Below are positions 35,371 to 63,594 of a stretch of 64,000 bases of DNA, piece by piece. Under the pieces are notes generated by a model. That model was not told the origin of the DNA, made no database searches, and was given only the letters and a program-made list of their open reading frames with translations. The position numbers and the translations under genes are program-made. This DNA is from Mytilus edulis. Lineage: Eukaryota. Numbering within the stretch: position 1 is the first letter of the stretch; every line of letters begins with the position of its first letter. The DNA is taken from assembly GCF_963676685.1 (NCBI RefSeq), contig NC_092352.1, positions 1,922,001 through 1,986,000 on the forward strand, read 5' to 3'.

Positions 35371-37498
35371 TTTTGATTTTGGACAATAGCAGGATCTTGA
35401 ATTTCCTCTTTATTAACGGCAACAGATTTATTGGTAGGTTGGTTATTGGATGGAACTAAGTTAGGCTTGGCAAGTACAGGCACAACAAACTGATGTCCAT
35501 TATTAGTGTGTCCTGGAACCAAGTCGGGTTGCTTTACACTGTTCACTGGAGGAACATGTTGGGGCTGCACAGCATTTGGTTCTGATAAAGCAACTGCAGG
35601 TCTATTTAGGTTTGCTGATGCATTACCAGGTCTAATCAGAAAACCTCCATTTGGAACTTGACTAGGAACAGGTCTGTTAGGATTTACTGCTGCTGGCCTT
35701 TGACTAACTGCAGGCCTGAATGGAATGTCCATTGTTGGAACCTGACCAGCTACATGTCTGGTTGGATTATTCATGGTAGGGAATTGACTTCCTGCTGGTC
35801 TCTTCAGGTTAACTGTTGTTTGACCAGGTATATTCTGAGTTGTTGACGTCACAGTAGCAAGTCCAGCAGTTTGTGGCCCAGTAATGGTACTTGATGGCCT
35901 TTGAACCCCCATGAGCAGTGGATTAAATGGAGGTCTATTCATGTTTGTCATTTGGTGTACATTTGATGGAGGCCTCTGAACGCCTGCAGTTGGATTGAAC
36001 ATTTGATTAAAATGTGGTCTATTCATGTTTGTCATTTGGTGTATAGTTGATGGAGGCATTGGTACACCAGCGTTTTGGTTTAACAATGGATTAAATGGAG
36101 GTCTGTTCATATAAGGCATTTGGTGTACAGTTGATGGAGGCCTCTGTATTCTAGTGTTTGGATTAAACGATGGATTAAACGAAGGTTTGGGCAGTAGCCC
36201 TTTATTTGACTGACTATCAGCTGTATTTAATACGTTGTTTGAAACATTACTATTTAACTGTGGTCTGTTCATACTAATGTTTGATGAATTAGCTGTTATA
36301 GTAGACTGGTTTCCTATCCTCATGTTCAGAGGGTTAGATGGATTAGGATAAGACACTGCTAACGTTTGATTGGTCATTGGTACTGGTACATTTGCAGATG
36401 TCATTAATTGTGGCAGATTTCCTAATGGTGTTTGCTGAATCATGTGACCAGCACCTAGACCAGGAGGTAATATGTCTAGTCCTATTGTCTTTTCCTGTCT
36501 AGACGGACCAGCTTGTGGAATGTGTGTCGCAGGCTTCTGACTTACAGACTGAGATTTCAATTGTTGATTTTGTGTGATGTTATTAATAATATTGATTGCA
36601 GACTGAGCACTAGGTTTCACATGTTGTTTTTGAGTGATATTATTATTGCTTACAGACTGAGCACTAGGTTTCACTTGCTGTTTTTGTGTTGTATTTTTCC
36701 TGCCTAAAGACTGAGCACTAACATTAACTGTTATATTAACGTTCATATCAGATGCATGACTAACGTTTACAGTGGCTGTTACACCTCTACTTGGACTAAC
36801 CGAGGGAGTGGTAAGGAGGCTGTTCTTAGTACCTATCACACTGGACGGAGTGGTAGTTAGTATATTTGGTACTGTATTTGACCTTACTAGTAAGTCATTA
36901 CGACCTTGTATTAAAGTTTTATCACTTGCTACAACAGAACTAGGAGATGATGACTTGTTTGCCTTGTCCCTCCAGTTCGAGAAGTCTGGACTACTCATTA
37001 CCTTGTCCAGTTTACCATGGAATTGAGAAGGTTTTAGAGGTGAGTTTTTAATTGGACTGTTTAACATTGGTAAGTCATCTTCACTGTCAGTTTGGTCAAA
37101 TATTTGATGTATTAAATCACTAGAATTAGAATCTGAACTAAACTCTATTTCTCTATACATATCATCACTTGTTGATTTGACTTTCTTTGTCTCTAAAGCC
37201 AATGTCCTTTTCTCAGCTCCACTCAAATCTTTCACACTGGTACAAGCTGCTTTAAATTTGTTATCTTTTAAGATCGGTTTGTCTTTCTTTCCCTGCTTTC
37301 TCCCTGTTTTTTCTGATACAATGAGACAATCTTTGGATGGGGTGTGTCCAGTTATTTGGACATCATTGTCATTGTTATGACCTGTGATAGTTGCATCAGA
37401 TAGACTTATATTTGATGGACTTATTATATTACTTTTAGCCAGTCTGATATCATTTACAGTCTTGTCTTTAGATGTATCTCTTTCACTGTCTGTAGAAT
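35371..37498 (-). CDS. RNF216: RNF216-like, large low-complexity exon (S/P/N/Q-rich)
   Basis: Boundaries ttacag|AT TCT ... CAA AA|gtaaga; 2128 nt open, phase 1 to 2. It has internal PPSTxHQMxxMNRPxFN repeats. Confidence 0.8.
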
Positions 37499-37979
37499 CT
37501 GTAAGGTAAAAAATAAAAGTCTTCTATTACTTTTTTCTAAATTCTAGCTTAGCCTTAAATTTTCAAATAAGGATTAATGGCCTCCATCACAATATATCAT
37601 TATGATCATAGCTTTATTTAAGTCTACATGTAGATAGGAAATAAGTATTTTTGTTTACATATCAGCATATGACTTGACACAATAAGCACTAATCTTTCTT
37701 TACGAAAAACTTAATAAATATATACATGAAATAAATTCAATGAAAAATCATAAAAATAAGAAGATTTGGCGTTAGGTCTGACGGGGAGCATATAGCAGAT
37801 GCGCCCACAAAAAAAATACTCTGTTTTCTTCTATAAAATTAAATATCTGCTTCATACTGAATTTGTTGAACCATGCGCTCAATGTATCCTAGGTCTAATT
37901 GTAGTTGAATTCAATAATTATTTTTTTTTGTCTTAAGGCATACAAAGTCATTTAATTGCCACCCTTTTATGATACTTTG

Positions 37980-43621: not shown

Positions 43622-46387
43622 TTACGACGTGAGGAACATATCCGATATCATCTGTGAAATGGTTATTCCATAACGGTCAACCAACTCGTGATGGCGTCCG
43701 TAAAATTTACGAAGGGATGATTTCAACTTCACCATTTGGAACTCTTGATTTAATAGCTTCCGTGTGAGCAGTAACCCTCTATCAAGAAAATCATGATAGG
43801 AAATGCAAGCACGGGAATATCGTATCAATTGAGAGATATATACCCCGTATGCAGGTGCTGCTGGAATGTTGCTACTTAGAAATGGAAAGTTCACAATAGG
43901 AAAGCTGAAATCATCTCTTTTGTCGTAAAGTTTTGTCTTCAACCGACCCTCATTGTCAATTTCTAGATGTAAGTCAAGATATGAAGCTGACTTAACTGTA
44001 TCTGTAGTATCCTTTATCTCCAATTCGATGGGATAGATGCGTTCCACATAGTCACCAAATTTTGAATTGTTTAGTGAAAGAACGTCATCTATATAGCGGA
44101 AAGTAGAGTTAAAGGATATTGCTAACTTCTTATCTTTCTTCCTAAGAAGTTCCTGCATGAAGTCAGCCTCATAATAATAAAGAAACAAGTCAGCAAGTAG
44201 AGGGGCACAGTTTGTTCCCATTGGTATGCCGACAGTCTGTTGAAAAACACGTCCTCCGAACGTAACAAATATGTTGTCAATCAAGAAATCAAGCATCTTG
44301 ATAATATCGGTTTCAGAGAATTTTTTGTTTGAATCAGAGTGATTCTTTACAAAGTAGGATTTATCCCTCCCTAAGACAAGATACTTGTATCTACGTTGGC
44401 CATTCTTTTTTATGAAGCAAAGTAATACCAACTCTTTTAATTTGTCTTTAAGTTTGGAATGTGGAATACTTGTGTAAAGAGTAGAGAAGTCAAATGTTTT
44501 AATACTGTTACAAGATGAAAGAGAGTTAGATTGTATGTACTCTAAAAGATCTTTGGAATTTTTAAGTATCCACATCTGATTCACGCCACCTCTAGAATAG
44601 GCAGTTTCACAATAACTTTGAAGCCCGTCTTTGATTGCTGATAAAATGGATGTTAATAATTTAGAAAGAGGTTTTGTGGAGCACTTGGAAGACCCAGCAA
44701 TATACCGCTGTTTGTAAGGACACTTATGTAGTTTAGGTATCCAATACAGTGATGGAAGATCCAGTTCTTCATCTTTGGTTGAAATACCAAAGGAACAAAG
44801 AACAGACCTATGATTATCCAGGATTTCCTCTTTGGTAAGTGTCGTGAGGGTATATGTTGAGTTTCCAAGTGAATTGTCTATACCTAATTCGTTTATCAAG
44901 CAATTAATGTAATGACTTTTACAGACAAAAACGATGTTATTTGGGGCTTTGTCTGCGGGGACAACAACATATTTATCATGGAGGTCGGATAGGTGTTTAG
45001 CAACATTTGGGTCTTTAAAAATTGACGTAGCATGGGCATTGATGGACCCATTCAGTTTCTTAATTCTGATTTGTATTAAGGACCTCACTGCCTTTATCCA
45101 TTCGGATAGAGTGTCTACGTCTTCCTTCTCGCGCTTAGCCCATTGCCTGGCATAATCCTCGACTGAATCCATCAAAATTTTAAAGTTGTATTTCCAATTG
45201 ATGGATTTAGGCTCACGATATTTCGGACCTTTCGATAACACGTTTCGTAGAGAAGTGTTATTAACAATGTTAAGGTCACCGGTAATAACGTGGCCAGCGG
45301 GATTATATGTGAATTGGGAACTAGCACAAGTGCAATCAGGAGGTTTAGACTTGAAGTCGTCAATATCGAGATCCTGCAAAACGCGTTTGTAATTGAAAAT
45401 TTTAGTTGCAATAGGTTTGGTATAGGTATAAGAAATTATTGGTACAGACTGGTCTTTAAAATAAGGAGGTATTTTCGATTGAACTAATTTATGATGAAGG
45501 ATATTGCCAAGGTTGACGCCATCGAGACCTTTGTTGGCAAAGGAAAGATTTAGAAAATATCTTTTCTCTTTTTCATCTTTTCCAATGCGAACTGGCTTGA
45601 AAAGTCTGTGACTTGCAATATCCGAAATTATAGCTTGAAGTTTGTATTGGTTTGAATGAGGGTTTGTAACAGTGGATTCCAAACATAAATTAAACAGAGA
45701 ATGAAGTTTTGAAAGGGGTAATGAATAAAGTTTCGTGCGAATGTGATGAATACCTAACGGTTTTTGTATGAATGGCAGCAAGTCATTAATAGAGACATCA
45801 TGCAGAGAGGGTGATGTATAATGACGATGACCATGACTGCGTCTACGTCGAGGAGTCGAGTTGAAAATATTCATCACATTCACCGAGTTACACGAAGGAC
45901 TAGATAGAATGCCTATACCATCAATTTTGTCATTGCAGCCATACGGTGTTGCAGTTCCCAATTGTCTAATCCAGTAGTCTTCTTTTTGTCTACGGAGAGT
46001 CGTTGAAAGATTAGGATTGTTAGAGCTATGGTATATCTTTTCGATAATGCGAACTGTCATAGAAACGATGGAATGATCGGGCTGATTGAAATGCTGGTAT
46101 AGAATGTCGTTAGCATTGAGGTTAATGTCTGATCTATGACCGCACATCCGTTTGTTTAGCCTTCCTTTCGTTTCACCGACGTATACCAATCCGCAAAGGT
46201 TGCACTCTAATCCGTAGACGACATTTATCGATTTACAATTCAGATCATCGTAACTTCTGGTAAAATATGACTTCTTGGTCAAATTGCTAGTGAATTCAGC
46301 ATCTGTAATTAAAATAGCACAAGTTTTGCAGCCTTTGGTCTCACATTTTGAAATGCGACAGTGTTGTACTGTGTCATCAAAAACCAA
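43622..46387 (-). CDS. Penelope-like element of the Naiad type: N-terminal GIY-YIG endonuclease + RT, intact ORF
   Basis: CETKGCKTC and VVYGLECNLCGLVYVGET...RMCGH...HFN...YWIRQLGT..PYGCN lie upstream of the RT motifs LYWIPKLHK, TFDFSTLYT, GIPMGTNCAP and FRYIDD. There are no stops in 921 codons. Confidence 0.93.
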   Translation of the reverse strand: MVFDDTVQHCRISKCETKGCKTCAILITDAEFTSNLTKKSYFTRSYDDLNCKSINVVYGLECNLCGLVYVGETKGRLNKRMCGHRSDINLNANDILYQHFNQPDHSIVSMTVRIIEKIYHSSNNPNLSTTLRRQKEDYWIRQLGTATPYGCNDKIDGIGILSSPSCNSVNVMNIFNSTPRRRRSHGHRHYTSPSLHDVSINDLLPFIQKPLGIHHIRTKLYSLPLSKLHSLFNLCLESTVTNPHSNQYKLQAIISDIASHRLFKPVRIGKDEKEKRYFLNLSFANKGLDGVNLGNILHHKLVQSKIPPYFKDQSVPIISYTYTKPIATKIFNYKRVLQDLDIDDFKSKPPDCTCASSQFTYNPAGHVITGDLNIVNNTSLRNVLSKGPKYREPKSINWKYNFKILMDSVEDYARQWAKREKEDVDTLSEWIKAVRSLIQIRIKKLNGSINAHATSIFKDPNVAKHLSDLHDKYVVVPADKAPNNIVFVCKSHYINCLINELGIDNSLGNSTYTLTTLTKEEILDNHRSVLCSFGISTKDEELDLPSLYWIPKLHKCPYKQRYIAGSSKCSTKPLSKLLTSILSAIKDGLQSYCETAYSRGGVNQMWILKNSKDLLEYIQSNSLSSCNSIKTFDFSTLYTSIPHSKLKDKLKELVLLCFIKKNGQRRYKYLVLGRDKSYFVKNHSDSNKKFSETDIIKMLDFLIDNIFVTFGGRVFQQTVGIPMGTNCAPLLADLFLYYYEADFMQELLRKKDKKLAISFNSTFRYIDDVLSLNNSKFGDYVERIYPIELEIKDTTDTVKSASYLDLHLEIDNEGRLKTKLYDKRDDFSFPIVNFPFLSSNIPAAPAYGVYISQLIRYSRACISYHDFLDRGLLLTRKLLNQEFQMVKLKSSLRKFYGRHHELVDRYGITISQMISDMFLTS

Positions 46388-46884
46388 AATGTCTTTAAGG
46401 AGAACTGAACATGGCTGTATATGTGTAATGTTGCTGTTTTCACTAGGACTAAGATGACAGAAACCAATCCATGCCGTACAGAGAGACGTAGTAGTTGGCG
46501 TACCCGCGTTAACATGCCTCCAAAACCATTGTCTATTATGGGGAGTGTCATGCCGATTAACGTCCGAGGGCTGTATCCTAGGCTGTTGGGTGATACGACC
46601 TTCATTTTACTGCCTCACGGCTTTGGTCCTGATAACGCTTCCTGTCATCTTTAGAACTACGTCCACGATTCATCTGCCAGTACTCCTTCATCGAGGCTAG
46701 CGGGCTGCCAAGCTGACCAAACTGGCCCTGAAAGCAGCCGTTAGTGAAGAAAAACATCAAAATAGTAAACAAAGAAAAATCAACTCACCAAAACCAAGAT
46801 GGCGGCCTACATATTGCGACCTCCACTACTTGTTCCTGACCCATGGCATCAAATCATTTAAAGCTCACCAAACGCCTTCGGGCA

Positions 46885-47725
46885 CCGAGCCGACCGTGCG
46901 AGGGCTGAAAGGCCAGTCAAGGTCGTTAAACACCACCACATATATATGTTAAGCGTGCGGATAAGTGTTCCAGTGTACTAGCACTCTAAAGTCCTGCAAC
47001 TACGGTAGGCTAGCACAAAGCAGTCAAAATTTACATACACCCTTTGGTTTTTTATTTATTTTATTTTATTTATATTTTTACTTTTCTTTTTTTTTCTATT
47101 ACATACAAAACATCCCACTAAATATTTTTGCAAAACTCACATACACTAATTTAGGCTTATTGTGGTTTATACATAATATTTGGCATATAAATTCACATAC
47201 ACAATTTGGCATATCAAAATTATCCGCTCTTTACTTGGCTGCTGGTGTACCAGGACAACGTTGCTGCCGTTCACTGCTGTTTACTTGGCCAAGCTTTCCT
47301 CCTGTTCCTACTTCCGGTGGCTCCGTGTTTAATAATTATTTATTTATTTTGTTTTATTTTATTTTTATTTTTATACAAAATTATTTCTATAATATTTTAT
47401 TATATTTAATTTTATATTCTTTTATTATTTTTTTTATTATTTTATTATTTACTTAATCTTAAATATTTTACTTTTTTCATTCATTTATTTATCTAAAATT
47501 TTGCTTTTTAAATTTTTTGCTTTTATTAAATTTTCTTATCATTATAAATTATTTAAATTACCACATGGTAAAAATATAAATTATTTAATGCCCAAAAAGG
47601 CGCAAGCCAGGGCCGACCGTGCAAGGGCTGTATAGCCAGTCAAGGTCGTTAAAAACTTCCATTTGTTGTTAAGCGTGCGAGGGCTGTATAGCCAGTCAAG
47701 GTCGTTAAACACTTCCATTTGTTTG
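46885..47725. repeat. Three copies of a ~40-bp GC-rich direct repeat around an AT-rich spacer
   Basis: cgtgc(g/a)agggctg(aaag/tata)gccagtcaaggtcgttaaa occurs at about 46895, 47617 and 47674. Confidence 0.75.
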
Positions 47726-48634
47726 TTAAATTGCTTAATCATTTAGAGAGCCACAGTCTATTAAAGAGATTTTTTACGGTAAGTGCTTTTATGAAAGCCT
47801 TGAAAAGATACACAACACTGCTTGTCGACAGTAGTTACTCTGCAGTATAGCTTTACATATAGAAAGCTTGATGGTCTTGCACAGACCTTACCACTAATTG
47901 TAAGATGACATTGTTATATAAAGAACAAAATGTCTATCTTCAGTCTTGCTGGTCTTTCACAGACCTATCATATTTTGTCACTTTTATGTGAGTTTTAACT
48001 TATTTACATTTGAATACTTTTATCTATATAATATTGTTGTTATTTGCTAATTTGTAATTTATCATAATAAACTATGAAAACTTGCTAGTGTTAAGTTCTA
48101 CAATGCCACTTATGAAGGATCAGAGACTCAGGATTCCGATACCTACTCTTTACACGGTCTGGGGTAAAATATGTAAAGTTCACACAGAAAATACGCAACG
48201 TCAAAACCCCTCCGGTTACAAAACATTCAATCATTACTATCTATAATAAAGACTTTAACAGCTGTCTCTGTTAAGGATGTTAGCTTCCACTATAAAATTA
48301 CCTCTGCTTCTGAATATTATCATCCAAATAATATGATCGACATTATCTTTATCTTAAAACTCATCTAGTCATGCAGTTAAAACGACGGTTTAAGATATGG
48401 TATAAACTCTGAATAATTTCAGTAATGCCACAGGATTTCTTTACTTAATCCAATTAATCTTAATAAAAAGTTGTAACTGGCTTCTAAAAAGATGAAAGGA
48501 CTGAAAGGTAAAATCGACTACTAGCGCACCTCAGTAGCCCTTGGATTAACCCCAGTCTCGCCCCATATGTATATCATCTGTGAAAAATAGTCTTCTACAC
48601 GGCTTTATATGACGCAAGGACGTATATATATATA

Positions 48635-48978
48635 TAGTTGATATACGTATTCAACATTTTAAAGAACATTTTACTATTAACAATAACCACAAAAAAACCT
48701 ATTTCTCGTATCAAACATAAACTAAAAGAACTAGCCAAGAAATTTGTTTTTGTCCCGGCCGATAAAGCTGCTAATAATATTATAATTGTTTGACGTAAAT
48801 TTTACATTGAGGTTCTGAAAAAAGAAATCACCAATTCACCAACATTCCAACTGACTCCATTTTCAGAAAACGACATCTGTAACAAAAAAGAAATCACCAA
48901 TTCACCAACATTCCAACTGACTCCATTTTCAGAAAACGACATCTGTAACAAACATAAACTTTTAGCTACCGCTTTACA
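48635..48978 (+). pseudogene. Second Naiad family, RT N-terminal part, with an in-frame TGA (48791-48793) and an in-frame 66-bp duplication
   Basis: It translates IVDIRIQHFKEH...KFVFVPADKAANNIIIV*RKFYIEVLKKEI, homologous to YVVVPADKAPNNIVFVCKSHYINCLINEL in the intact Naiad. It begins in a (TA)n tract. Confidence 0.85.
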
Positions 48979-49111
48979 GAACATATTTATTTCCAATTAA
49001 GGGCCCACAAGGGGCATACAGAGCATACATGAATAAGGCAAAAGAATATTGATTTGCATAGATACATAGATACAAACAATTTTTTACATACAGTTACAAT
49101 ACAATTACTAA

Positions 49112-49711
49112 TATTCTGCCTCAGTGCATACTAGTATAACCATAAGCCACAGTAATGTATATCATTTATTTCGAAAACCATGAAATAACAAGTTCTACAT
49201 ATGTGTGCTGTGATGTTGGTAAAAAGCTACAAAAAACAAAAACAAAACCTTAGCTAACTCATCATACTCATGACTACAAAAATCATAAAACTAACAGTTC
49301 AAATCTATGTATCAAAATGAATTTTCAATCAAATCATTCAAAAATTATAGCACCAAATGGCTTTCCATACTTTTATAAAAACAGTGACAAAATAAACAAT
49401 CATCATATTTCACTTTTGGCTGATATACACATATACAAAATTTATCTTGATGTGGAAACATATTAACTTTCATCATACAATCATTAAAAACTATGAATTA
49501 TAAACTTATATTGTGAGTTGGCGTAGTTTACGATACTTTTAAATGCCTGTGACCACGTTCATGCTTTCAATTTAGGAAACAAAAAAGTAAGGGGGACAGT
49601 AACGAACTTCAAAGTACAAAAATCTAGCAATAAAAAATAGTCCGGGAAAACTTATGAAAAATCGATAGAATTTCTGTTAAACAATAAAAAATCAACACTG
49701 GTAACAGTACA
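49112..49711 (-). repeat. BEL/Pao 3' LTR
   Basis: It matches 56137-56736 with only one difference noticed (cttatattg vs cttacattg). Minus-strand termini are TGTA...AATA. Confidence 0.95.
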
Positions 49712-49917
49712 CTCCCCGTCTATTATCATTCCCATGATAATATTTTACAACAAATTTATGCAAATATACCAAATGTAAAAATAAGTCACAATTTTGACTA
49801 TTACGAAAAATCAATGCTATCGAAGAACATTCCTTCAGCATAAAAAACACACTAAAAATACAAACAACAGTTCACTTAAACCTTTTATAAATTGTTCAAT
49901 ATTGTCAATATTCACAA

Positions 49918-52900
49918 TCAGTCTACCAATAAAACCATCTCACTAATCGGTCTAGTATATGTAACAGCTTTTCCTTCCTTGTAAATGCGGAGGCGAGCCT
50001 TGCGTATTTTTCCATCATCGCTTTTGAAAACTTCCTCCACAATGCCTAGTGGCCACTCTCCTCGGTAAATAGATTTGTCTCTCATAAGAATTACATCACC
50101 AACTTTGATATCGTCTTTGTCAATGTGCCATTTACGTCTCTGTTGCAAACATTGTAAATAATCTGACCTCCAATGCTTCCAGAATATATCTGATAGAACT
50201 TGCACATGTTTCCATTGTGCACGATACATATCCTTGAGATTGTATGTGTCCGTTATCACAGGTAAGTAGTCTTGTTTTCCAGTTAAGAGCATTGATGGAC
50301 TTAGAATCAAAGGCATTTCCGGATCTGATGATATCTGTGCAATGGGTCTTGCGTTAATAATAGCGGTCACTTCAGCTAAGAATGTTGTTAAACTTTCATG
50401 AGTCAAACTTTTACTACTAGAAGTTAAGATAACAGCGTCTAATATTCTTCGTGTGACACCTATCATCCTTTCCCACACTCCTCCCATGTGGGAAGAGTGG
50501 GGAGGGTTAAATTTCCATACTGAACCAGATTCACATAGAAAGTTTTTAACTGTCAAATCTTCAACATTTATAGCTTCAATATTTGAATCATCTGTGGCAC
50601 CTATGAAATTTGTCCCACGGTCAGATCGATACACTTTGGCTTGTCCGCGTAATGACTGGAACCTACGAAGTGAATTTATAAAACAGGAACTGCTTAATGA
50701 TTCTATCACTTCTATATGGACTGCTCTCGTAGTCATACATGTAAATAAAATAGCCCACCTTTTACTATTTGCTGAACCTCCACGTGTCTTACGAGTTAAT
50801 ACTTGCCAAGGTCCGAAGGTATCCAAACCTACAAATGTGAACGGAGGCCCTGGTGTTAGTCTATCAGAAGGCAAGTCCGCCATTTTTTGTTCCTGGAACT
50901 TTCCTCGAAGTTTCCTGCATATTACACACTTTTGTATAAATGAAGAAATTAATCGTTTAGCTCCAATTAGCCAGTATCCTGCACTCCTTAACGCACCTTC
51001 AGTTAAATGTCTACCCTGATGTTTCACTGAATTGTGATAGCGGTCTATAAGAAGCTTACTAATGTAACTATTTTTCGGAATGATAATTGGGTTAATTTCT
51101 CCTGTCGGAAGCCAAGACTTTGCCTTTTCCAAACGTCCTCCTACACGAATCAAACCTTGTGAATCCAAAAATGGCGAAAGAGAGATTAAAGATGATTGTT
51201 TTGAAATGTTTGTGCCTCTAGCCAAACATTCTATCTCTTGCGAATATACTTCCTTCTGACATTCCTTCAAGATAAATAATTCCGCTTTTTGGTAACTATC
51301 AACTGACATGACATTTTGACAAAAATGCCAACCTTGGCACGACTTATCCTTTAAACTGAATGACTGAGCCACATGTTGCAAAAATGATATAGCTTTCACA
51401 AGCCGTCTCCAACTAGAGAATTTTTTAAAACGCCCCACTATTGGCGCAAGCGCATCTATTGACGTTTTCGATGCACTTATCTCTTTTCTAATCTCTTTAT
51501 CATTATCTGGACTAACTAACGGATATAATATTTTGACATCACATTGAGCTTCTTCGTCAGAGTTCTTCATCCACTTCGGCCCAAGAAGCCATGGATTGTT
51601 TTCCATATCAACAGATATTGAGTAACGTGTACCGCAATCTGATGGGTTTAAATGTGTTGGGACAAACTGCCACTGATTTGATGACGATACACTCAGAATG
51701 CGTTCAATTCTGTTTGACACGTAGGTGTGAAAACGTCGGGTCTGATTAGTGATATATCCTAACACAATTTTGCTATCAGAATAATACTTGATAGAGTCCA
51801 ACGGAACATCTAAATTTTCAGATATTATTTTTCCAATTTCGGTTGCCAAGACAGCCCCACATAACTCTAATCTTGGTATCGTGTTTCCGCTAAGAGGTGC
51901 TAGTTTCGATTTTCCCATAATAAATCCTACGGTACTGGTCCCATATGTGTCGATAGCTCTTAAATATGCCGAAGCCGCAACTGCCTTCTCTGAAGCGTCT
52001 GAAAATACATGTACTTCTAAGTTGTCCATAACACTGATTGACATAGGTATATACATACGTGGTATACTAAGTTCTCGAAGTGACAAAACAGAGATCCTCC
52101 ATTCATTCCATTTCTCTTGAAAACTTTGTGATAAACATTCATCCCAATCAGTACCCGGTGGGGATGCATCTCGCAACAAAATCTTTCCGCTAATTGTGAG
52201 TGGTGACAAGAATCCAATCGGATCAAAAATACTATTCAATGACGAAAGAATACCTCTACGGGTGCAGGGTTTATCATCTTGTAATGGGGTAAATATAAAG
52301 CTATCGGTGTTTAAGTCCCAAGCGAGGCCAAGGCTGTGTTGTACCGGAAAATAGTCTTCACACAAGTTTAAATTCTTGAGATCCTTTCCAATATCATCGG
52401 CAGGGAAAGCCTTCATTACGTCGCTACTATTTGATGTAATCTTGTGTAACCTAATGTTACCTTCTGTTTTTAGCGCCATCTGTGTTCTTGTTATAAGATC
52501 AATTACTTGTTCACTTTCAGGCAAGGAAATGAGCCCATCGTCTACGTAAAAATCCCTGTTAACGAAAGTCTTAACATCTGAGCCGAACGTTTCATTAGAG
52601 TTTTCAACTGTCTTACGTAATCCGTACGTTGCCACTGCAGGAGAAGCGCTATTGCCAAAAACATTGACACACATCCGATGTTCTATAAGCGGATTATCTG
52701 GGTTATTGTCCTTGTACCAAAAGAACCTCAAAAAGTTTCTATCTTCTTCTCTCACGTAGAATTGATAAAACATTTGTTCTATATCAGCAGTGGCCGCAAA
52801 CTGGTCACTGCGAAAACGCAACAAAATACCAAGTAGGTTGTTAGTGAGATCTGGTCCTGACATCATAACGCTATTGAGAGATACTCCTTCGAAAGATGCT

Positions 52901-53925
52901 GAGGAATCAAATACGCCTCTTATCTGGTTAGGCTTGTTCTGGTGGTAAACGCCAAAAAGGGGGAGATACCAACACTCCTCATCTGTGATTATGGGAGCTA
53001 CCTCCGCTGCTCCGCTAACTAATACTTTTTGCATAAATTCTACAAAATGAGTCTTTTTTGTAAAATTTTGTTGGAAAGATTTATCGAGTATTTGAGCCCT
53101 TTTCCATGCTTGACTCCTATTGTTCGGCAATCGTTGTCTATTTGGTCTAAAAGGGAGGGGTGCAGTCCAGTGCCCATTTGAATCTTTCTTAAATTCAGAA
53201 TCCATGAGATTAAGGAACAAGCGGTCTTGGACTGATGTGCCAATCTTGTCGTCATCTTTGGTTTTAATAAACAATGGGTCATTGTTACATCTTTGTGAAT
53301 GAACATTATCTCTGATATGAGCCAATTCAGTGTTTTCCTTTACATACAAAGTGTTAATACAAGGTTCAAATATAGTTCCTCTACCATTGTTCATTACATT
53401 AGTCTTATTGACATTGACAAAATTTGGTTTGTGTACTTTGCCTAAGCAAACATCGCCTATAATTACCCAACCGAAAAAGAGCTCCTGGGCAAATGGCGTG
53501 CCCTTCGGTCCTGTCAACTGTCTAAACACGTGGTGCGCTTCTGGGACATCTCTTCCAATCAAAAGTTGAATGTCTATATTTGGATTCAAATCTAACATTT
53601 GATGAGCTATCTCCCGTAAATGGGGATAGGATTTAGCAATATCCGGAGTCGGAATTTCTGATTTTTCGTCTGGGATTGCACTGCACTCTATTACTGAATG
53701 TATTTCAAGTTCTCCATTACCAGACAATGACTCAACTATCAGACTTTCTGCACATCTACCATTCATGATAGTGCGTCCAGCACAAGACGACATAGTATAC
53801 TGAATGGCCGATGTATTTATACCTAATTGATCGAACAGCTCAGTCTTAGCAAGAGTTCTGTTACTTTGGTCGTCCAGTATAGCGTACACATTAACGGCTT
53901 TATCTGGGAAGTTCTTCGGGTACAC
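49918..53925 (-). CDS. BEL/Pao pol (protease, RT, RNase H, integrase)
   Basis: Motifs: AILDDQS protease, ADIEQMF, FGNSASP, FYVDD, VFSDAS, IPRLELCGA, H..KHQG...CVIC, GLDTFGP, SDRGTNF and GGVWER. Confidence 0.95.
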   Translation of the reverse strand: MYPKNFPDKAVNVYAILDDQSNRTLAKTELFDQLGINTSAIQYTMSSCAGRTIMNGRCAESLIVESLSGNGELEIHSVIECSAIPDEKSEIPTPDIAKSYPHLREIAHQMLDLNPNIDIQLLIGRDVPEAHHVFRQLTGPKGTPFAQELFFGWVIIGDVCLGKVHKPNFVNVNKTNVMNNGRGTIFEPCINTLYVKENTELAHIRDNVHSQRCNNDPLFIKTKDDDKIGTSVQDRLFLNLMDSEFKKDSNGHWTAPLPFRPNRQRLPNNRSQAWKRAQILDKSFQQNFTKKTHFVEFMQKVLVSGAAEVAPIITDEECWYLPLFGVYHQNKPNQIRGVFDSSASFEGVSLNSVMMSGPDLTNNLLGILLRFRSDQFAATADIEQMFYQFYVREEDRNFLRFFWYKDNNPDNPLIEHRMCVNVFGNSASPAVATYGLRKTVENSNETFGSDVKTFVNRDFYVDDGLISLPESEQVIDLITRTQMALKTEGNIRLHKITSNSSDVMKAFPADDIGKDLKNLNLCEDYFPVQHSLGLAWDLNTDSFIFTPLQDDKPCTRRGILSSLNSIFDPIGFLSPLTISGKILLRDASPPGTDWDECLSQSFQEKWNEWRISVLSLRELSIPRMYIPMSISVMDNLEVHVFSDASEKAVAASAYLRAIDTYGTSTVGFIMGKSKLAPLSGNTIPRLELCGAVLATEIGKIISENLDVPLDSIKYYSDSKIVLGYITNQTRRFHTYVSNRIERILSVSSSNQWQFVPTHLNPSDCGTRYSISVDMENNPWLLGPKWMKNSDEEAQCDVKILYPLVSPDNDKEIRKEISASKTSIDALAPIVGRFKKFSSWRRLVKAISFLQHVAQSFSLKDKSCQGWHFCQNVMSVDSYQKAELFILKECQKEVYSQEIECLARGTNISKQSSLISLSPFLDSQGLIRVGGRLEKAKSWLPTGEINPIIIPKNSYISKLLIDRYHNSVKHQGRHLTEGALRSAGYWLIGAKRLISSFIQKCVICRKLRGKFQEQKMADLPSDRLTPGPPFTFVGLDTFGPWQVLTRKTRGGSANSKRWAILFTCMTTRAVHIEVIESLSSSCFINSLRRFQSLRGQAKVYRSDRGTNFIGATDDSNIEAINVEDLTVKNFLCESGSVWKFNPPHSSHMGGVWERMIGVTRRILDAVILTSSSKSLTHESLTTFLAEVTAIINARPIAQISSDPEMPLILSPSMLLTGKQDYLPVITDTYNLKDMYRAQWKHVQVLSDIFWKHWRSDYLQCLQQRRKWHIDKDDIKVGDVILMRDKSIYRGEWPLGIVEEVFKSDDGKIRKARLRIYKEGKAVTYTRPISEMVLLVD

Positions 53926-56066
53926 ACGGACCTGAACGGTTTTTCCACATGATTTACCACTAAATCCACATAAAAACGTGCACTTGGATGATCATTAGCA
54001 TTTTGCGTTGTATCAGATGATTTCTCTCCGCCGTCAGGACAACTAGATTTTGCAGTTACATGCATAGCGGTTATATGATAATTACTTCCACAATGATCGC
54101 ATTTTACAGTTACAGTGCAATTTCGTGACATATGAGTTGTCGAATGGCAGCATTTGAAACAAATATTATTGTCCTTCAGATACTTTCTGCGTTCTTCATA
54201 AGTCATTGCTTTAAAGGCTCGACAAGTATTCAAATGATGATTGGCTTTATGAATAGGACAACGTACTGTCTCTTTCTCTTCCTTCTGTTTAATATTAACA
54301 TCCGTTTTTCGGTTAAACACTGACGTTGCACCATGGTTAACTTTCCGTGTTTCATTTTTCCTAGAATACGACGTTTCAGTATTACTATAAATAAACGCGG
54401 GATCATTTTTGACAGCACTAACCTCTCTGATAAATTGCACCAAGTACGAAAAAGGTGGAAATGGTACGTTGTTCCTCAGTTTGTATTGCGATGCACGTGT
54501 TGTCCACTTCTCTTGTATATTATATGGTAATTTGTCCACAATTGGTAAAACACCAGAAGAAGAGTCGAAATATGACAATAAATTTGAAAATGTCTCATTC
54601 TCTTTCGAAGATTCTATTTGTGTGAGAATATCTAATAGCTCATAAAGTCGACTATGATCCTTGTTTGTTAACTTTGGAAACTTCTGTAGTTTTGTTTTAA
54701 TTGCAGCTTCTACCATCTCAGGTCTACCATAGCGTTCGTCAAGACGCTCCCATATACGACGAAGACCAGCATTTGGATTGTTCACATTTGACGCACGAAT
54801 ATTTTGCGAAAACTTTGAAGATTCACGGCCGAGCCATTTAACTAATAAGTCCATTTCTTCGAAAGCCGTAACTGAGAGTTCTTCAGTAATACTTTTAAAG
54901 GTAGCTTTCCATGAAGCATAAGTTTCGGGACAGTCATCGAAATTCTGAAATCTAGAAAGTAGTAAATCTTTCTTCAACAAAAACTTTGTCAAGTCAGACA
55001 CTACAGACTGATCATGATTTGGTGGCAGTGGTGGTTGAGTTAATTCAAAATCAGCTGCATAAGGATTTAATGTTTGTTTTTGCCGAATTTCTGGTTTAAT
55101 ATCTTCAACTATCGATCGATCCAAATCGTCGACTTGAAATTTTGGCAAATTCCTTGGCGTAGGAATTATGTTTAACTGGTTCCGAGGTGCCGGAATATGT
55201 GAACTAAATTTGTCTTGATTGTTCGGAATATCTTGCGGAACATTATTATTCTTGTCTTGAGATTTGAGTTGTTCCACTTCATTAAATTGTTCATTTACAT
55301 ACTTTTCTGTTAGTGTCATTTTCACTTTTTGTAAATACTCTTTGTCTTCTTGTAACGACAAGGATCTTCTATCGCTCTCGGCTTCTTCTAAAACTTTGAC
55401 CTCGACCTCTGCGACAGCGGCTTCTGTCTGTTGTTTAAGCAGTGCTAAATCTGCATCAACTTCAGCTTTTTCACGGTCCTTCAAAGCTTTAGACTGTGTT
55501 TCTAATTCACTTAATCTTGCTTTTTGCTTAATTAATTTTGTTTGTTGTTCCGCATATTGTAACTTTGTTCGTTGAACTTCAGCATTTACACGCTTCCTAG
55601 CCATAGCTGAACTCGAAATTGAGCCGCTTTTACCACTATTGTTTGAACGGACAGACTCTACAGGAACTACTGACATAGTTTCAGCTGCGGTTAATTTCAA
55701 TGTCTTAATTTGTTGTAATGTATTGTCAATGATTTCATTGCACTTTTTAAACTCAGTCTTAAAGGTGGGTAATGCGTCATTACTGTCTTCATTATTCTTG
55801 CGTGTCAAAAACTCAATATATTGATTTGAGTTTTCACAGTATTTTTCACGAGACTTCAAAATGTTTTTCTCTAGTTTGCGTAGAGGTTTCAGCTCCTTCG
55901 AGCACTCTGATAATTCTTCGAGTAAATTTTCTATAGTTTCCCACGAACCGTCAATTTGCTTAAGGTATTTTATCTTATGTGAATGATAAAGTTCTTTACC
56001 TTTCTCTGTCATTTTATGTTCATGTGTTACTGTTGTTTCAGGCGGAAGTGGTTGTGATTGAGCCAT
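53823..56066 (-). CDS. BEL/Pao gag (coiled coil, capsid-like region, three Cys/His knuckles)
   Basis: It has the knuckles CPIHKANHHLNTC, CFKCCHSTTHMSRNC and CDHCGSNYHITAMH. The frame shifts to pol near 53990. Confidence 0.9.
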   Translation of the reverse strand: MAQSQPLPPETTVTHEHKMTEKGKELYHSHKIKYLKQIDGSWETIENLLEELSECSKELKPLRKLEKNILKSREKYCENSNQYIEFLTRKNNEDSNDALPTFKTEFKKCNEIIDNTLQQIKTLKLTAAETMSVVPVESVRSNNSGKSGSISSSAMARKRVNAEVQRTKLQYAEQQTKLIKQKARLSELETQSKALKDREKAEVDADLALLKQQTEAAVAEVEVKVLEEAESDRRSLSLQEDKEYLQKVKMTLTEKYVNEQFNEVEQLKSQDKNNNVPQDIPNNQDKFSSHIPAPRNQLNIIPTPRNLPKFQVDDLDRSIVEDIKPEIRQKQTLNPYAADFELTQPPLPPNHDQSVVSDLTKFLLKKDLLLSRFQNFDDCPETYASWKATFKSITEELSVTAFEEMDLLVKWLGRESSKFSQNIRASNVNNPNAGLRRIWERLDERYGRPEMVEAAIKTKLQKFPKLTNKDHSRLYELLDILTQIESSKENETFSNLLSYFDSSSGVLPIVDKLPYNIQEKWTTRASQYKLRNNVPFPPFSYLVQFIREVSAVKNDPAFIYSNTETSYSRKNETRKVNHGATSVFNRKTDVNIKQKEEKETVRCPIHKANHHLNTCRAFKAMTYEERRKYLKDNNICFKCCHSTTHMSRNCTVTVKCDHCGSNYHITAMHVTAKSSCPDGGEKSSDTTQNANDHPSARFYVDLVVNHVEKPFRSVCTRRTSQIKPLMCTLYWTTKVTELLLRLSCSIN

Positions 56067-56136
56067 TTCATAAAATTGTTTGTAGGAACTACTGCATGTT
56101 ATTCTGTATCGAACTGTGTCTTTGCAATCTTTTTAC

Positions 56137-56736
56137 TATTCTGCCTCAGTGCATACTAGTATAACCATAAGCCACAGTAATGTATATCATTTATTTCGAA
56201 AACCATGAAATAACAAGTTCTACATATGTGTGCTGTGATGTTGGTAAAAAGCTACAAAAAACAAAAACAAAACCTTAGCTAACTCATCATACTCATGACT
56301 ACAAAAATCATAAAACTAACAGTTCAAATCTATGTATCAAAATGAATTTTCAATCAAATCATTCAAAAATTATAGCACCAAATGGCTTTCCATACTTTTA
56401 TAAAAACAGTGACAAAATAAACAATCATCATATTTCACTTTTGGCTGATATACACATATACAAAATTTATCTTGATGTGGAAACATATTAACTTTCATCA
56501 TACAATCATTAAAAACTATGAATTATAAACTTACATTGTGAGTTGGCGTAGTTTACGATACTTTTAAATGCCTGTGACCACGTTCATGCTTTCAATTTAG
56601 GAAACAAAAAAGTAAGGGGGACAGTAACGAACTTCAAAGTACAAAAATCTAGCAATAAAAAATAGTCCGGGAAAACTTATGAAAAATCGATAGAATTTCT
56701 GTTAAACAATAAAAAATCAACACTGGTAACAGTACA
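56137..56736 (-). repeat. BEL/Pao 5' LTR
   Basis: It is a direct repeat of 49112-49711. Confidence 0.95.
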
Positions 56737-56737
56737 A

Positions 56738-59700
56738 CTAACTCATATTCACTTTAATAAATTTACCAACAGCATTAAGGACCTGATTGTCTTCACAGTT
56801 TAATAAATAAATAAATTCATGCTGATTATCAAGTATAGAAAAATTCGGAATTCTTTGGCAAACAAAGTCAAAGAGAGCATCTCTATCCGATTTAAAATTT
56901 TCACAGTTAGTTAAAAAATGGATTTCATCTTCAACGCAGCCAAGAGGAGCATTTTTTGCAAATTCTTTCATTTCGTGGAATATTTGAAAAACGACCAACT
57001 TCAATTTGAAGCTTATGAGCAGAAATACGTAATTTGCATATAGATCTTCTAAAATCAAAGTTCTTAATTAAAGAAAGATAATTTTCATAACCAAAATTCT
57101 GCTTAAATTTCACATAATTAAACAGTTTTCCATCGGAAGCTTTATTTTGGCTAGCATACCAATTGCTAATATATTTAGTGTGAATTAATTTACTAGATAT
57201 GTTCAAAAATTTATATTGTCCGAAATGTTTTACTTCTTGTTTAATTTCAAAAACTTCTAATACTTTTTTAACAAATGAGAACCAAGAAGTTATGTTAGAT
57301 TTGTGAAGCTCTTGGCTGCATTTATAAGCATCTTTCAATAGACTGAAATCAGTTGTAAGATTTTCAAATCTATACCAGTATTTTACAATTGACTTTACAA
57401 TATCATAATGTAAGGGGAAACATTCCAGTTCTGATAATACAGCAAAATTGACACTCCTTTTGTGTACACCAAGTATAAATTTAGAAAATTTAAGATGGAG
57501 ATTCTCACACTTAAGATTTTTAAAAACATTTTCAAGATTAAATAAGGAAGACTGTAATTTAGTACAAGTGACATTATAACCTCCCCATACCTCTGAATTA
57601 TATAACAGAATGGGTTTAAGGGTATGATCAAAAATATGAACAGAAGATTTTATTCCAGGAGACAAATTGATAAAATCCTTTCTAAGTTTGTAGTAGGCCT
57701 TAAGAGCCTTATTATAAAGTTCAGTTTTAGCTAGATGAAAACTTCCAGATGCAGTAAAGTGAACACCTAAATATTTGTAATGAGCGACACAGTCAATCAA
57801 GTTATTCTGCAGTCGAAAATTTGCCTGAATTTTCCTTCCAGCCTTATTAAAAATTATGACTTTAGTCTTTCTAATATTAACTTTCAGGCACCAGTCAGCA
57901 CAATATTTTTCTAGCTGATCAAGTCTACTTTGAAGCCCTGTGGCTGATGTTGACATAATCACAATATCATCCGCATACATCAAACAATTTAATTTCTCTG
58001 AGTGCAGGGAAACTGCATCCAGACAGGAGTCAAGATATTGATAAGATGGGAAGTCATTTATAAAAATTTTAAATAATGAAGGACTCAAGTTGTCTCCTTG
58101 TCTTACACCTAATTTAATGCTAAAAGGGTCAGTGAGAGAAGCTCCAACTCTTACACATGCTTTACTATTATTATACATATCTGATATAATATTATAAAAT
58201 AAAGTACCAACTTTCATATTAATAAGCTTCAGTTTAAGACCTATATGAATTACACTGTCGAATGCTTTGCGAAAGTCTACAAAACAAGTATATAGTCTAC
58301 CCTCTTTACTGTGACAGTATTTGTCTATCAGTGTTTTCAAAATAAATATATGATCTGAAGTTCTGGCATTTTTTGTAAAGCCAATCTGAGAATTATGAAT
58401 TAAGTTGTTTTGGTACAAAAATTTGTCAAGTCTTGTATTCAAAATATTGTTAAAAAGTTTACCAATGGTACTAGTAATTGTTATACCTCTATAGTTAGAT
58501 GGATCACAAGGATCATCTGATTTAAAAATTGGCGAAATAAAACCATCAGCCCAAATCTTTGGGTACACACTATTCTTGAGGCACAAATTAAATAATTTAT
58601 ATAAGCAACCTATCAAATATGACTGACTATATTTTAACATTTCATTTGAAATCAAATCAGGTCCACAGGCCTTGCCTGATTTTAAGCTCGCAATAGCATC
58701 AGAAATTTCTTTTTTACTAATATCATTATCTAAATCATTAAAAACTAAAGATTTTTCTTTGTCATTTAGGATCATTTCCAACTGGTTAAGTCGTGAATAA
58801 AATGTGTTATCAATTGCAGAGTGAAGATTACGAAAGTGATTGGCCCATGTATCAGAATCAATTTGTGAAGAGCAGTTTTCTTTTTTGCTATCCTGAATGT
58901 CATTTATTAATTTCCAATACTGCTTAGGGTTTTCAACTCTAAGAGTATCAAGTTTTTGTAGCATGGAATTGATAAATTGCTTATATTTAACTTTTCTATA
59001 TTTATTATAGATTCTAAAATATTTATAATATCTGCCTTTAATAACAGGATCCTTAGGATATCTTGAATAAATTTTACCTAAGGATATAACATTTTTGCGC
59101 ATTTTAAAAAGATCACTATCAAACCATTTTTTTCTGGGGTCTGGGACCCTTTTTATTCTTTTTTTGGGGTTACCAGGGAAATTTTGGCTGCAGAAAGAAA
59201 GATATCACATAAATCCTGTGCCTTTTTGTTAATGTCTTCAGAAGAGCAATAACTATCATTAATAAGGAAAGATGAAATTTTCTGCTGATTATCCGGTGAC
59301 AAAAGTGCTTGCTGAAATTTAAGTGGGGAGTCCTCAGTCCATCTAAAATTAACAGGGGCAGCATGAAGATTATTTGACTGAGTTTCTGTTATTTGATATT
59401 TAGCCAAAATTTCCCATGATATTTTACAATGACAGTCTGAGAATGTTGAGACAAACTCTGACACTCTGAAATAAAGTATCTGATTAAATAATCTTTCATT
59501 TGCTATAAGGTAATCAACAGTGCTTTGGCCATGTGTATTAAAACAAGTAAAATGACCAAATAAATCACCCATGCATCTACCATTTATATTTATATATAAA
59601 TGATTTAACAGATTATTTGAATAGCAAAAATATAAATGGCTTATTGTCTATATCTGAATGTTTGGAAAATGATCTCAATGTGTACCTAAAATTATTTATA

Positions 59701-61223
59701 CTACTTTATGCTGATGACACAGTCATTATGTCAGAGAATAGAGACGATCTTCAAAATCAATTGGATATATTTAGTGAATACTGTGATATTTGGAAATTAA
59801 AAGTTAATGTGGCAAAAACAAAAGTTATGATATTCTCAAAGGGAAGACCTCCTAGTAACGTACATTTCTTGTACAAAGGAAACAAACTAGACATAGTAAA
59901 CGAGTTCAATTATTTGGGTATAAATCTTGCCAGGACAGGACCATTTACAAAAGCAAAGAAAAAGATTGCAGAAAAAGCAACGAAAGCCATGTATGGCGTC
60001 ATACAAAAAAGCCGTTTATTTAACCTTTCAATAAAATGCCAACTTGATCTGTTCGACAAAATAGTTAAACCCATACTTCTGTATGGATGTGAAGTTTGGG
60101 GATCTGAGAAAAATTATGTTATCGAACAAGTTCACCTGAAATTTCTAAAACATATATTGCACTTGAAAAAATCAACACCAAGCATAATTGTGTATGGTGA
60201 AACAGGCAGATACCCACTTGACATCAACATAAAATGCCGAACTATTTCGTTCTGGTGCAAACTATGTTCAGACGAAAACAAACTGTCTTCATTAATTTAC
60301 AAGACTGCATATTACCAACATTGTGTGAAAAATCAAAGCATCAAATGGATCAAATATGTTCAAAATATTCTTAACATGAGCGGGTTTTCAAATGTTTTTC
60401 AACAACAAAATGGACATTTCTCAAAGTGGCTAAATCAGAGCATCAAAATGAGGCTAATCGACCAATACAAGCAGACGTGGTATTCTTCAGTACAAGACTC
60501 ACCAAAATGCATTAACTATAGACTGTTTAAAAAGACATTGGAGTTTGAGAACTACTTGAATATTCTTGAAGATAAACATTTGTTTACATTATGTAAATTC
60601 AGAGCAGGTAACCATGCGTTACCTATAGAAAAGGGAAGATGGCAAAACATTGCCCGAAATGAAAGAACATGTTCGTTGTGTAGTTCCGGTGAGATAGGCG
60701 ACGAATTTCATTATTTGTTTTGCTGTTCGCATTTGAAGAACGAAAGACAATTAAATCTACAAATTAAGTTTTCAAATAATCCAAATATAATTTCATTTTG
60801 CTCATTATTTAATAGTAAAAAACAATCTGTCTTAAGGAAACTATGTTTATTTATTAAGTATATGTCATTTTGAAGAAAGAAAAACTGTTTTTCAAATTTT
60901 ATCCACTGAAAATCTTTGGACAACCCAGGAATTATTTTGATATGATCTTTTAAAGATGTCCTTCGAAAAATGCCTAACCCACCATAGTATCTTCCATTGG
61001 TTGAAATATTTCTACAAACAGGAAAATAATTAAAACCTTCAACATGTAAGTTAACATCATATCCAATATGTGTTTCTGCTAAAATAACCACATCATACTC
61101 TTTTATTTCTTGTACAAAAAGGTGATCTTCTAACTTATTCATATTATGTGTATTTATACCACCAATGTTCCAGTAACATATTTTCAAATTGTTCTTAACA
61201 ATAGAACGACCATGTTTAGCCAT
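56738..61223 (-). pseudogene. RTE-X ORF2 (APE + RT + Cys/His tail); frameshifted and partly replaced
   Basis: Motifs: YWNIGG, LAETH, STVDY, SDCH, NYRGITI, VDFRKAFDSV, GVRQGDNLSP, LMYADD, KLRISAHKLQIEVGR, RICKKC and EDEIHFLTNC. Confidence 0.9.
59587..60860 (+). pseudogene. Inverted internal RT fragment of a different RTE-X family
   Basis: Motifs: LLYADD, KPILLYGCEVWG, GETGRYPL, FRAGNHALPIEKGRW and RTCSLC...GDEFHYLFCC. It has no 5' part and no 3' tail. Confidence 0.88.
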
Positions 61224-61580
61224 ATTTAAAAATCTAAATTAGACACCAAATTCACTTGTTTCCAGTAATGTTTCTTAATTGGTAACAAAATAGGCTACTA
61301 ATAATGAGCAACAAAAACTTTGAAAAATAAAATAAACAACAAAAAAACAAAAAATGAATTAGTCTCAGAGACAAATTGGCTACTTGCCAGAAAAAGAAAA
61401 AAAAAGTTACCACTTGTAACTAACTACCTTTTATCAGCTTTTAATTTTCCAAAGATATACAGATAACACTTGAACAAATATAGATCAATTAGCTGGCTAT
61501 TATCTGAGTTAATCAAATACCTTGCTGATTATATTATAGGAAAAAATAAAAAGATAGTACAATAAGTATATTTTCATGGT

Positions 61581-63594
61581 TTACCCTGTTCTTTTGAACT
61601 TGACCCTATTTTGCTCATTATGATCATGATAATTATTAGATGATTGGCGATGTTGTGGCCGATACTGTTGACGAGCACGGTCAGTGGATCTGGAATATCT
61701 GTTGTTCCTTTGTTGTACCTTAATACCTAAGACAGTATGTAATGCATTCTTAATGTTAGAAGCCAACATTGATGTTCCCCTCTCTGACAAGTGAAATTTA
61801 TCTTCATTTAAGAGTTGTTGTATTGAGACTTGCCCATGCCACATGTTTGAGTTGTCAGAAACATATACATCTTTATTGTCTAGATATCTTCGTTTTACTA
61901 GTCCATCAATGATTTCTGAATTAAGACGATGTAAGCGATTATCAAGGCGGGGAGTAGTTAGTGACACTATGGTTTTAGCTTCTTTCCATTTGCTAGAAAT
62001 TGATTCTACTACCATTTGTAGCTTGTCCATGCATTCATTTGGGTTGTTGTTTTTAACGTCGTTAGTTAGTGAATGTATGATAACAACATCAGGGCTACAC
62101 TGTGCGGTTGAGATTACCTCGTATGCTTCATCTAAAGTATATGCTGTAGTTTTCGTTATATCCACTGCCGTTGATAGTTTGTTTTCATTAATCCTATCAG
62201 TGTTTGATGTGCCAATAAATAGAGCTGTAGGTTTGTTAGATTTGCCTTCATTGTTGAAGGACCCATTAGCAAAATGCTGCTCATTTTGTTGCTGTGTAGG
62301 TAAATACATGCTCGATAGCTGTGATTTGAGAGATAATACTTCATTAAATTGAGAGTCAGTTTTCTCTTTTAAAAGTTTGTTTTCTTCACTAATTTTCACC
62401 ATTTCACTACATTTGGTGTTCAATTTGACCTTGAGATCATCATTAATATCATTGATATCCTCCATTTTCTGGTCCATTCTAGTATTAACTATTTCAAATT
62501 TATTATTTTCAATGCGAAATTTGGAATCAAACTCAGCGTAATCTGTTGCAGCTTTGTGTTTGCCCATAGAAAGGTTATGGACTTGGTTTTCGAGTTCTAC
62601 AATGCGATGTTCTAGTTTATTGAATTGTTTTTCCATGTTGCTGTGTTCCTTTATATTACACGTAGAGGCATTATGCAAAATTGTATCTGATTGATGTTTG
62701 TTATTAACCTGTTCTTGTAGTTTTTTAACTGTTTCTACAACTGGTGTAATTGCTGATCTTATTACATCGGAAAAGCTTTTTTCTGCTTGCACTATAAGTG
62801 CCGTTTTAGATTTGGTGATACCAGCTAAAGCTTCAACAAAAGTAGACTGAAGCCTATCTAAATCTTCATATCCGATAGAAATCTTAGCCTGTGTGGCTAT
62901 TGTAGTTTCTGTACATGTATTAGAAGTGGGAACATTTGCTTGAATGCTTGTATGTGAGTTGTTATTGTTATCTGTTAATGTATTGTCTACAGAACTAGCA
63001 TTTGAGTTAAAAACTGATTTTACACTTGTAGATTCTTCGATTGAGTTCTTGTCTGAAGATTTACATGTAGAATCAACATCTGTGTTGACTATCAATGATG
63101 GATTGTGTAAACAAATACAATTGACTAGTGTTATCAATGTTGGGAAGTCCCTTGTGGTGAATAGGTCTTTGCTAAGTCCTTGAGCTTGCAACACACCAGT
63201 AGTGATAAATAATGTAATTTTATATACAAGTTGTTTATCATTGGTAAGGTTTATACATAGTAGCTTTGTTACTTTCACCCTCCCACTGGTGAGGATCATC
63301 GTACCAGTCAACTTGATACAATTCAGCTTTTTTACCAAAATGTTCATAATATAAGATACCAAGAGCACGTATCCAAGCCTCCAACCTGTTTCTCTTAATT
63401 CTACATGCAACCATTCTTGCGGGGGGCTCATAAAGGTTTGGATCAATTATCTCGTATTGTAGTTTCTTGGCTTTTGCACCCGAGTGATTCTTAAATTTTT
63501 CTGGAAGACACCCTCTTGGATAATCCTTAAATATTGGGGTGATTGACTTGTCAATTTCATCCTCGTGTATCTCAAATGGAAATTTATCTGACAT
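61581..63594 (-). pseudogene. RTE-X ORF1: coiled coil + SGNH esterase-like domain (one frameshift near 63250)
   Basis: Motifs LFIGTSN, VIIHSLTND and DKFHLSERG fit GDSL/SGNH blocks. Overlapping ORFs 63238-63594 and 61581-63446 indicate the frameshift. Confidence 0.75.

Follow-up and report, generated by a model that had tools for sequence, protein, structure and literature searches.

The in-frame TGA codon at positions 48791-48793 (+) of the window, the 64,000-nucleotide stretch of the Mytilus edulis genome analysed here, is one of four TGA codons fixed in a high-copy family of Naiad (Penelope-like) retrotransposons, hereafter family 1. On the evidence of sequence, this codon is very probably read as selenocysteine (Sec) by means of a SECIS-type hairpin located in the 3' UTR of the element itself. 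Selenoprotein-encoding transposons have so far rested on four consensus sequences from one paper and, as given in the available part of Craig et al. 2021 (PMC8557442), on no experiment. The M. edulis genome offers young, intact and transcribed copies, along with two or more families that differ in their Sec sets, which makes the claim directly testable. If true, the jumping of these elements would be tied to selenium supply.

The split Naiad copy in the window

The TGA codon occurs within VPADKAANNIIIV-TGA-RKFYI, at the Cys position eight residues past the Naiad DKA motif (DKA+8). The features of the copy that carries it, and of the Cys-type Naiad with which it was aligned, are as follows:

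48791-48793 (+), putative selenocysteine codon at the DKA+8 Cys position, equivalent to codon 522 of intact copies
48634-48978 (+), 5' part of a Naiad copy truncated at its 5' end, from an older subfamily of family 1, adjoining a (TA)n run at its start
48695 (+), extra A in an A-run, giving a frameshift just upstream of the DKA region by comparison with full-length copies
48818-48949 (+), 66-bp in-frame tandem duplication, private to this split copy
48979-63768 (-), nested insertion of 14.8 kb that splits the copy, made up of LINE-type element(s) (Pfam), without target duplication at the outer junction
63769-64000 (+), continuation of the split copy (RT), extending past the window to G000:C9:1987735
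43622-46606 (-), intact Cys-type Naiad of a distant family, with a 994-codon frame and Cys at all five sites

As an earlier note on this DNA had claimed, the TGA sits at a Cys position, where tblastn aligns it to the Cys within VPADKAPNNIVFVCKSHYI of the intact Naiad (ORF 43622-46606 (-); E 1.6e-5, 40% over 60 aa), while the continuation piece 63782-64000 matches the same ORF with an E-value of 4.6e-16. The frames at ~48697-48978 and 63769-64000 are open, the TGA aside, in agreement with the description of both pieces in that note as otherwise free of stops. The halves of the copy meet at 48978/63769 with the loss of ~3 bases. The 5' piece is 98.8% identical to the full-length copy L035/L038 (blast), and L035 is also the nearest copy across the 3' 1.97 kb (98.4%). 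Beyond the window, the copy contains a +2 frameshift, a TAA stop, a SECIS (L034:2144-2208) and a (TA)n end, and TA runs flank both of its ends. Because it is 5'-truncated, frameshifted and split by the 14.8-kb nested insertion, the copy is unable to encode protein and is a dead descendant with an inherited codon. The probable selenocysteine codon proposed in the earlier note thus stands for the family, where fixation, the hairpin, selection and a host tRNA-Sec speak for it, and falls for the window copy itself. Directly after the 3' end of the split copy, a tRNA-like (B-box) stretch at L034:2800-2900 (-), recognised by eye and in which ARAGORN calls no tRNA, is probably the head of a SINE.

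Fixation of the TGA codons in family 1

The earlier note proposed establishing whether TGA is fixed in the family, as opposed to most copies carrying TGT or TGC. When the window site was searched genome-wide with exact 34-mer flanks, the third codon position being varied and the first two bases held constant, 656 of the 659 matches were found to carry TGA, three TGG and none TGT or TGC; a reversed-pattern control for this search gave 0 matches. The best 40 genome matches of the TGA region are 98-100% identical, with TGA in 30 of the 30 retrieved. Among 46 near-full copies, 40 of which were selected via a site other than codon 522, codons 55, 86, 97 and 522 are TGA in 46, 46, 43 and 46 copies, respectively, the exceptions at codon 97 being TGC/TGT in two copies (L065 and L067) and TAA in one. 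Genome pattern matches for the three endonuclease TGAs gave 100 of 100 among the matches listed (of 212), 100 of 100 among those listed (of 242) and 66 of 67.

Organisation of the element and its predicted protein

The body of family 1 spans 3.89 kb (L083:300-4191), and many copies carry partial repeats of the 3' end upstream. The ORF of L083 extends from ATG to TAA over 1002 codons with exactly four TGAs (codons 55, 86, 97 and 522), and in nine of the 46 near-full copies TGAs alone interrupt a frame of 999 or more codons. A GIY-YIG endonuclease (EN), a CxC linker and a telomerase-like reverse transcriptase (RT) are encoded in this order. The Naiad traits present comprise the single ORF, the N-terminal GIY-YIG EN, the CX2-5CxxC and CCHH fingers (with C50-U55-C58 and U97-C102-H121-H138 conserved), a KR-rich block, the CxC, GxKF/Y and DKA motifs and the C-terminal RT, together with the structural traits of a 3.4-4.4 kb body, 5' truncation, pseudo-LTR tandems and a (TA)n preference. 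Homologues of the endonuclease carry PF01541, while Pfam RVT_1 gave no match on the family 1 RT and 22.6 bits on that of the Cys-type Naiad. In a predicted structure model (pLDDT 86), the best Foldseek matches are telomerase reverse transcriptase (E 7e-11), a fold match that would be expected for a Penelope-like RT, at ~11% identity and a TM of 0.3; no solved Penelope-like protein was among the Foldseek matches listed. The endonuclease half found no long protein above 41% identity in protein databases, to which the seleno-Naiad clade is almost invisible.

All four TGAs align with Cys of the Cys-type Naiad in the window, which shares 38% identity with family 1, and database homologues have Cys at columns 55, 86, 97 and 522 in 54/55, 57/59, 59/61 and 76/81 rows, respectively. 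C385, C387, H399 and C522 are all near-invariant in these homologues, which suggests that they may form one metal site. In the proposed mechanism, host SBP2, eEFSec and tRNA-Sec would bind the 3' UTR hairpin and insert Sec four times, giving a full EN-RT protein that would copy its own RNA. Without recoding, translation would halt at codon 55 and neither endonuclease nor RT would be made, making jumping dependent on selenium. More tentatively, the Sec residues could serve as metal ligands (C50-U55-C58-U86, U97-C102-H121-H138 and C385-C387-H399-U522).

The SECIS-type hairpin and the host machinery

Further family 1 sequences in the window include a second copy with its own 3' UTR:

22899-23737 (+), second, shorter 3' copy of family 1, 96% identical to L035, with TAA at 23098-23100
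23152-23216 (+), SECIS-type hairpin of the second copy, with the same sequence as that of the split copy
23426-23492 (+), RNA motif of the 3' UTR that resembles Twister-P5, scoring below threshold
26560-26663 (-), short fragment of the extreme 3' end of family 1

Approximately 50 nt past the TAA of the split copy, Rfam SECIS_1 gave its only match in 761 nt (32.3 bits, E 2e-4, cut-off 35). The 65-nt family 1 hairpin combines an AUGAU/UGAU core, an 11-pair helix II, AAA and an apical CCC-UAAC-GGG stem, and would be type II-like given this predicted apical stem; its fold z-score is modest (-2.3). Conservation of the hairpin inside family 1, where the comparison includes two rows without hairpin coverage, is uninformative because the copies decay neutrally. 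In a custom scan of diverged metagenome 3' UTRs (RT identity 64-99%), a SECIS-like hairpin was found in nine of 11, with 0 of 1200 resampled controls matching, and there was no SECIS-like match in L131, where the TGA is present, or in L138. The same scan located the hairpin in nine of another 20 genome loci, a set that includes many decayed ones. Helix II is paired in 86 of 90 cells across nine distinct hairpins, an upper figure given that these were chosen for best pairing, compared with 30-44 cells after sliding and a maximum of 83 in 5000 arm shuffles, and the 5' arms often have only 2-5 of 10 bases in common. Compensatory changes maintain the helix in families with as little as ~63% protein identity. 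The Cys-type Naiad at 43622-46606, which serves as an internal negative control, gave no SECIS-like and no twister-like match.

Host tRNA-Sec genes with a TCA anticodon occur at five loci above the cut-off. Four equal-scoring tRNA-Sec genes lie within 0.6 Mb (G000:C7:74.8-75.4 Mb), and at G000:C10:14.40-14.44 Mb a tRNA-like gene is part of an 895-bp tandem array. The 47-nt SECIS core has 2,689 exact occurrences in the genome, which, when part of host transcripts, could possibly serve as donors of SECIS or as sponges for SBP2. At least this number of exact cores makes testable the speculation, in the available part of PMC8557442, that transposons donate SECIS to host genes.

Alternative readings of the TGA codons

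The alternative that survives best, although it is very improbable, is that the UGAs are read through as Cys or Trp rather than Sec, be it through a near-cognate tRNA, by A-to-I editing that yields UGG or under a changed code. The three non-TGA copies do carry TGG, and Sec insertion itself is deduced from sequence. However, Trp would not stand in for a metal-type Cys, and the SECIS would be left unexplained. In the family 1 ORF, only four of the 29 Cys-type codons are TGA, and Trp is encoded by seven TGG codons; because the other 25 Cys codons are TGY and TGA terminates two of six other ORFs checked in the window, where other elements also end in TGA, the genetic code is not changed. Editing is likewise countered by RNA data, in which the best-supported 40 of 84 difference rows (depth ~40-90) include none of the four TGAs. 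In four public RNA runs, from an organism with this sequence in its other runs, all 30 bins of the element are covered, mainly at the 3' end and on both strands, and most reads therefore represent passenger transcription. The endonuclease region is strand-biased in one run (~50-70 vs 5-20), which fits sense transcripts in a stranded library, and mixed in a second run. These data show transcription of the element, not recoding.

Less probable still, and hardly tenable, is a dead master element with true stops whose amplification in trans relied on proteins of Cys-type Naiads. Intact Cys-type Naiads are present in the same genome, as this would require, but all four stops are TGA and fall at conserved Cys, no TAA, TAG or frameshift is shared, and the SECIS is conserved in structure. 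Selection downstream of the TGAs, both within and between families, also stands against it. Variants common to at least four of the 46 copies, taken as subfamily changes that became fixed during the active life of the element, comprise 45 synonymous, 20 non-synonymous and 0 nonsense changes (pN/pS 0.12), versus 242 synonymous, 447 non-synonymous and 32 nonsense changes among single-copy variants (pN/pS 0.51; Fisher p 2.7e-8), a comparison restricted to single-base codon changes and excluding variants found in two or three copies. After codon 522, the shared changes counted from the list are 24 synonymous and eight non-synonymous. The relative L125 (92% nucleotide identity) differs by 138 synonymous and 66 non-synonymous codon changes and retains all four TGAs. 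Purifying selection has thus acted on the ORF both upstream and downstream of codon 522, in support of translation across the UGAs. The same shared variants and L125 changes disfavour a passenger copied in trans.

The caveat in the earlier note, a single TGY-to-TGA nonsense mutation in one copy, has a negligible probability. The window copy is decayed, and some Cys-type Naiads of the same genome (L100, L106 and L119/L157) do carry private TGAs, but 656 of 659 copies have TGA, none TGY, and relatives at 93% and 63% identity carry TGA as well.

A sister family and putative Sec/Cys switching

Besides family 1, for which Sec remains the preferred reading, a degenerate genome search identified 113 further DKA..TGA sites, mostly belonging to family 2. 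This family is 63% identical to family 1 and is represented by L140, L141, L101, L113 (G000), L128 and L129, which are young and have open frames. Its open copies contain five TGAs, namely the four of family 1 and one at the first Cys of CxC, the latter being TGA in 12 of 12 covering loci. The family 2 SECIS has a different sequence, is situated 144 nt past the stop and was detected by the custom scan, not by Rfam. Two relatives, L127 and L135, instead have Cys at DKA+8 and TGA at the CxC Cys and have retained the SECIS; the codon in L127 (L127:2-4) lies at the contig edge, and the L135 copy has decayed. A quick, unrooted tree of the RT places these elements in one clade (27 rows, SH-aLRT 98), distant from the Cys-type Naiad of the window, with Cys and TGA at DKA+8 interspersed. 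We infer that this position may have switched repeatedly between Sec and Cys. The family 2 RT cluster in the database has members named Mytilus edulis and M. californianus. Five database proteins outside the mussel clade (P0121, P0111, P0088, P0093 and P0134) have W at Sec columns, probably resulting from TGA translated by code 4 (TGA=Trp), and would then represent further Sec-Naiad lineages.

A twister-like RNA in the 3' tail

Twister-P5 (Rfam RF02684) was matched at 23426-23492 and L034:2418-2484 with 23.1 bits, below the cut-off of 37.6, and was seen only when 131 nt were scanned. The twister-P5-like motif, with its two covarying palindromes, was also observed in the Sec-clade 3' UTRs of L133, L135 and L143. 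The motif resembles type-P5 twister in its core (GAGGG, UAA, GC and GUCCCAAG) and in that P2, P4 and both pseudoknots (T1 and T2) can be formed. It differs in its score below the cut-off, in the replacement of P1 by two short palindromes and in an added P3 hairpin, and self-cleavage at U/A is putative. The core is invariant and paired in six of six distinct rows, although invariance alone is not covariation; both arms of the hairpin and of the two palindromes vary (6 cells, 0 of 500 shuffles). Dimer formation is known for the hammerheads of Penelope elements, and the covarying palindromes would fit dimer formation of the twister-like RNA. Rfam scans gave no hammerhead ribozyme match. The word "twister" is absent from the main text of Craig et al. 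2021 (PMC8557442), and no link to Naiads was found in the available parts of the twister literature (PMC10085705 and PMC6765202).

Comparison with published Naiads

The available part of Craig et al. 2021 (PMC8557442) confirms the selenoprotein Naiads that the earlier note had cited. It describes four UGA/SECIS Naiads, found in two clams and in two spiders, each of which has UGA both ahead of GIY-YIG and at DKA+8. The four SECIS are there all given as type I, SECISearch3 grade A, 1-21 nt after the stop. The same combination is found in family 1, with at least three in-frame UGAs fixed at conserved Cys, including the pre-GIY Cys and DKA+8, and a SECIS in the 3' UTR (Rfam score below cut-off, core features, covariation).

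As far as the available part of PMC8557442 allows the comparison, family 1 is most like the clam elements Naiad_Mmer and Naiad_Scon, sharing the N-terminal GIY-YIG and RT, the UGAs at the pre-GIY-YIG Cys, the first CCHH Cys and DKA+8, and a SECIS past the stop; over the first 400 residues, compared by eye, its endonuclease resembles these two far more than it does the Mytilus entries. It differs from the clam elements in an additional UGA, at the second CX2-5CxxC Cys (where both clams have Cys), in having no UGA in RT6, in its hairpin ~50 nt past the stop with an apical stem of predicted type II-like form, and in its mussel host. The spider elements Naiad_Sdum and Naiad_Smim likewise have UGA before GIY-YIG and at DKA+8, and Naiad_Sdum also at the second Cys of CX2-5CxxC; unlike family 1, they recode the first Cys of this finger, keep Cys in CCHH and have a reduced IFD and much shorter ORFs. 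The Sec set of family 1 therefore corresponds to that of the clams plus the second finger Cys recoded in one spider. The mussel elements Naiad_Mcor, Naiad_Mgal, Naiad_Bpla and Naiad_Mphi, not listed as selenoproteins in the same source, share the Naiad architecture but have Cys at the endonuclease sites and, by eye, a different endonuclease sequence.

A literature search outside the subscription journals returned only Craig et al. 2021 and one oyster preprint on the topic. Relative to the available part of the former, the new features are the mussel host, the type II-like SECIS, the set of Sec sites, the five-TGA sister family, the putative Sec/Cys switching at DKA+8, the 2,689 exact SECIS cores and the twister-like RNA in the tail. 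A more far-reaching reading, which we consider rather unlikely, would be that of an old and diverse mussel clade of selenium-gated retrotransposons with a structure-kept SECIS, in which the ligand positions of three metal sites exchange Sec between them (the DKA+8/CxC swap), a dimer-forming twister takes the place of the absent hammerhead and thousands of scattered, intact SECIS have given rise to a host selenoprotein or UGA read-through gene.

Other elements in the window

Several further elements were annotated, those within the nested insertion being listed first:

61581-63446, 60711-61238 and 56931-59204 (-), LINE parts of the insertion, respectively esterase-like ORF1, APE and RT (Pfam)
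59551-60873 (+), second LINE RT fragment in the opposite orientation, inside 48979-63768
49109-56736 (-), Bel/Pao LTR retrotransposon nested in the LINE-type insertion, with 603-bp LTRs that are 99.7% identical
1930-5736 and 11805-16111, two LINE elements with endonuclease and RT frames
9958-11244, ORF resembling a tyrosine recombinase, which we take to be Crypton-like
35367-37523, long low-complexity host exon

With its near-identical LTRs, the Bel/Pao element is young. A short repeat at 46889-46959 and 47612-47679, near the Cys-type Naiad at 43622-46606, may be the pseudo-LTR of that element.
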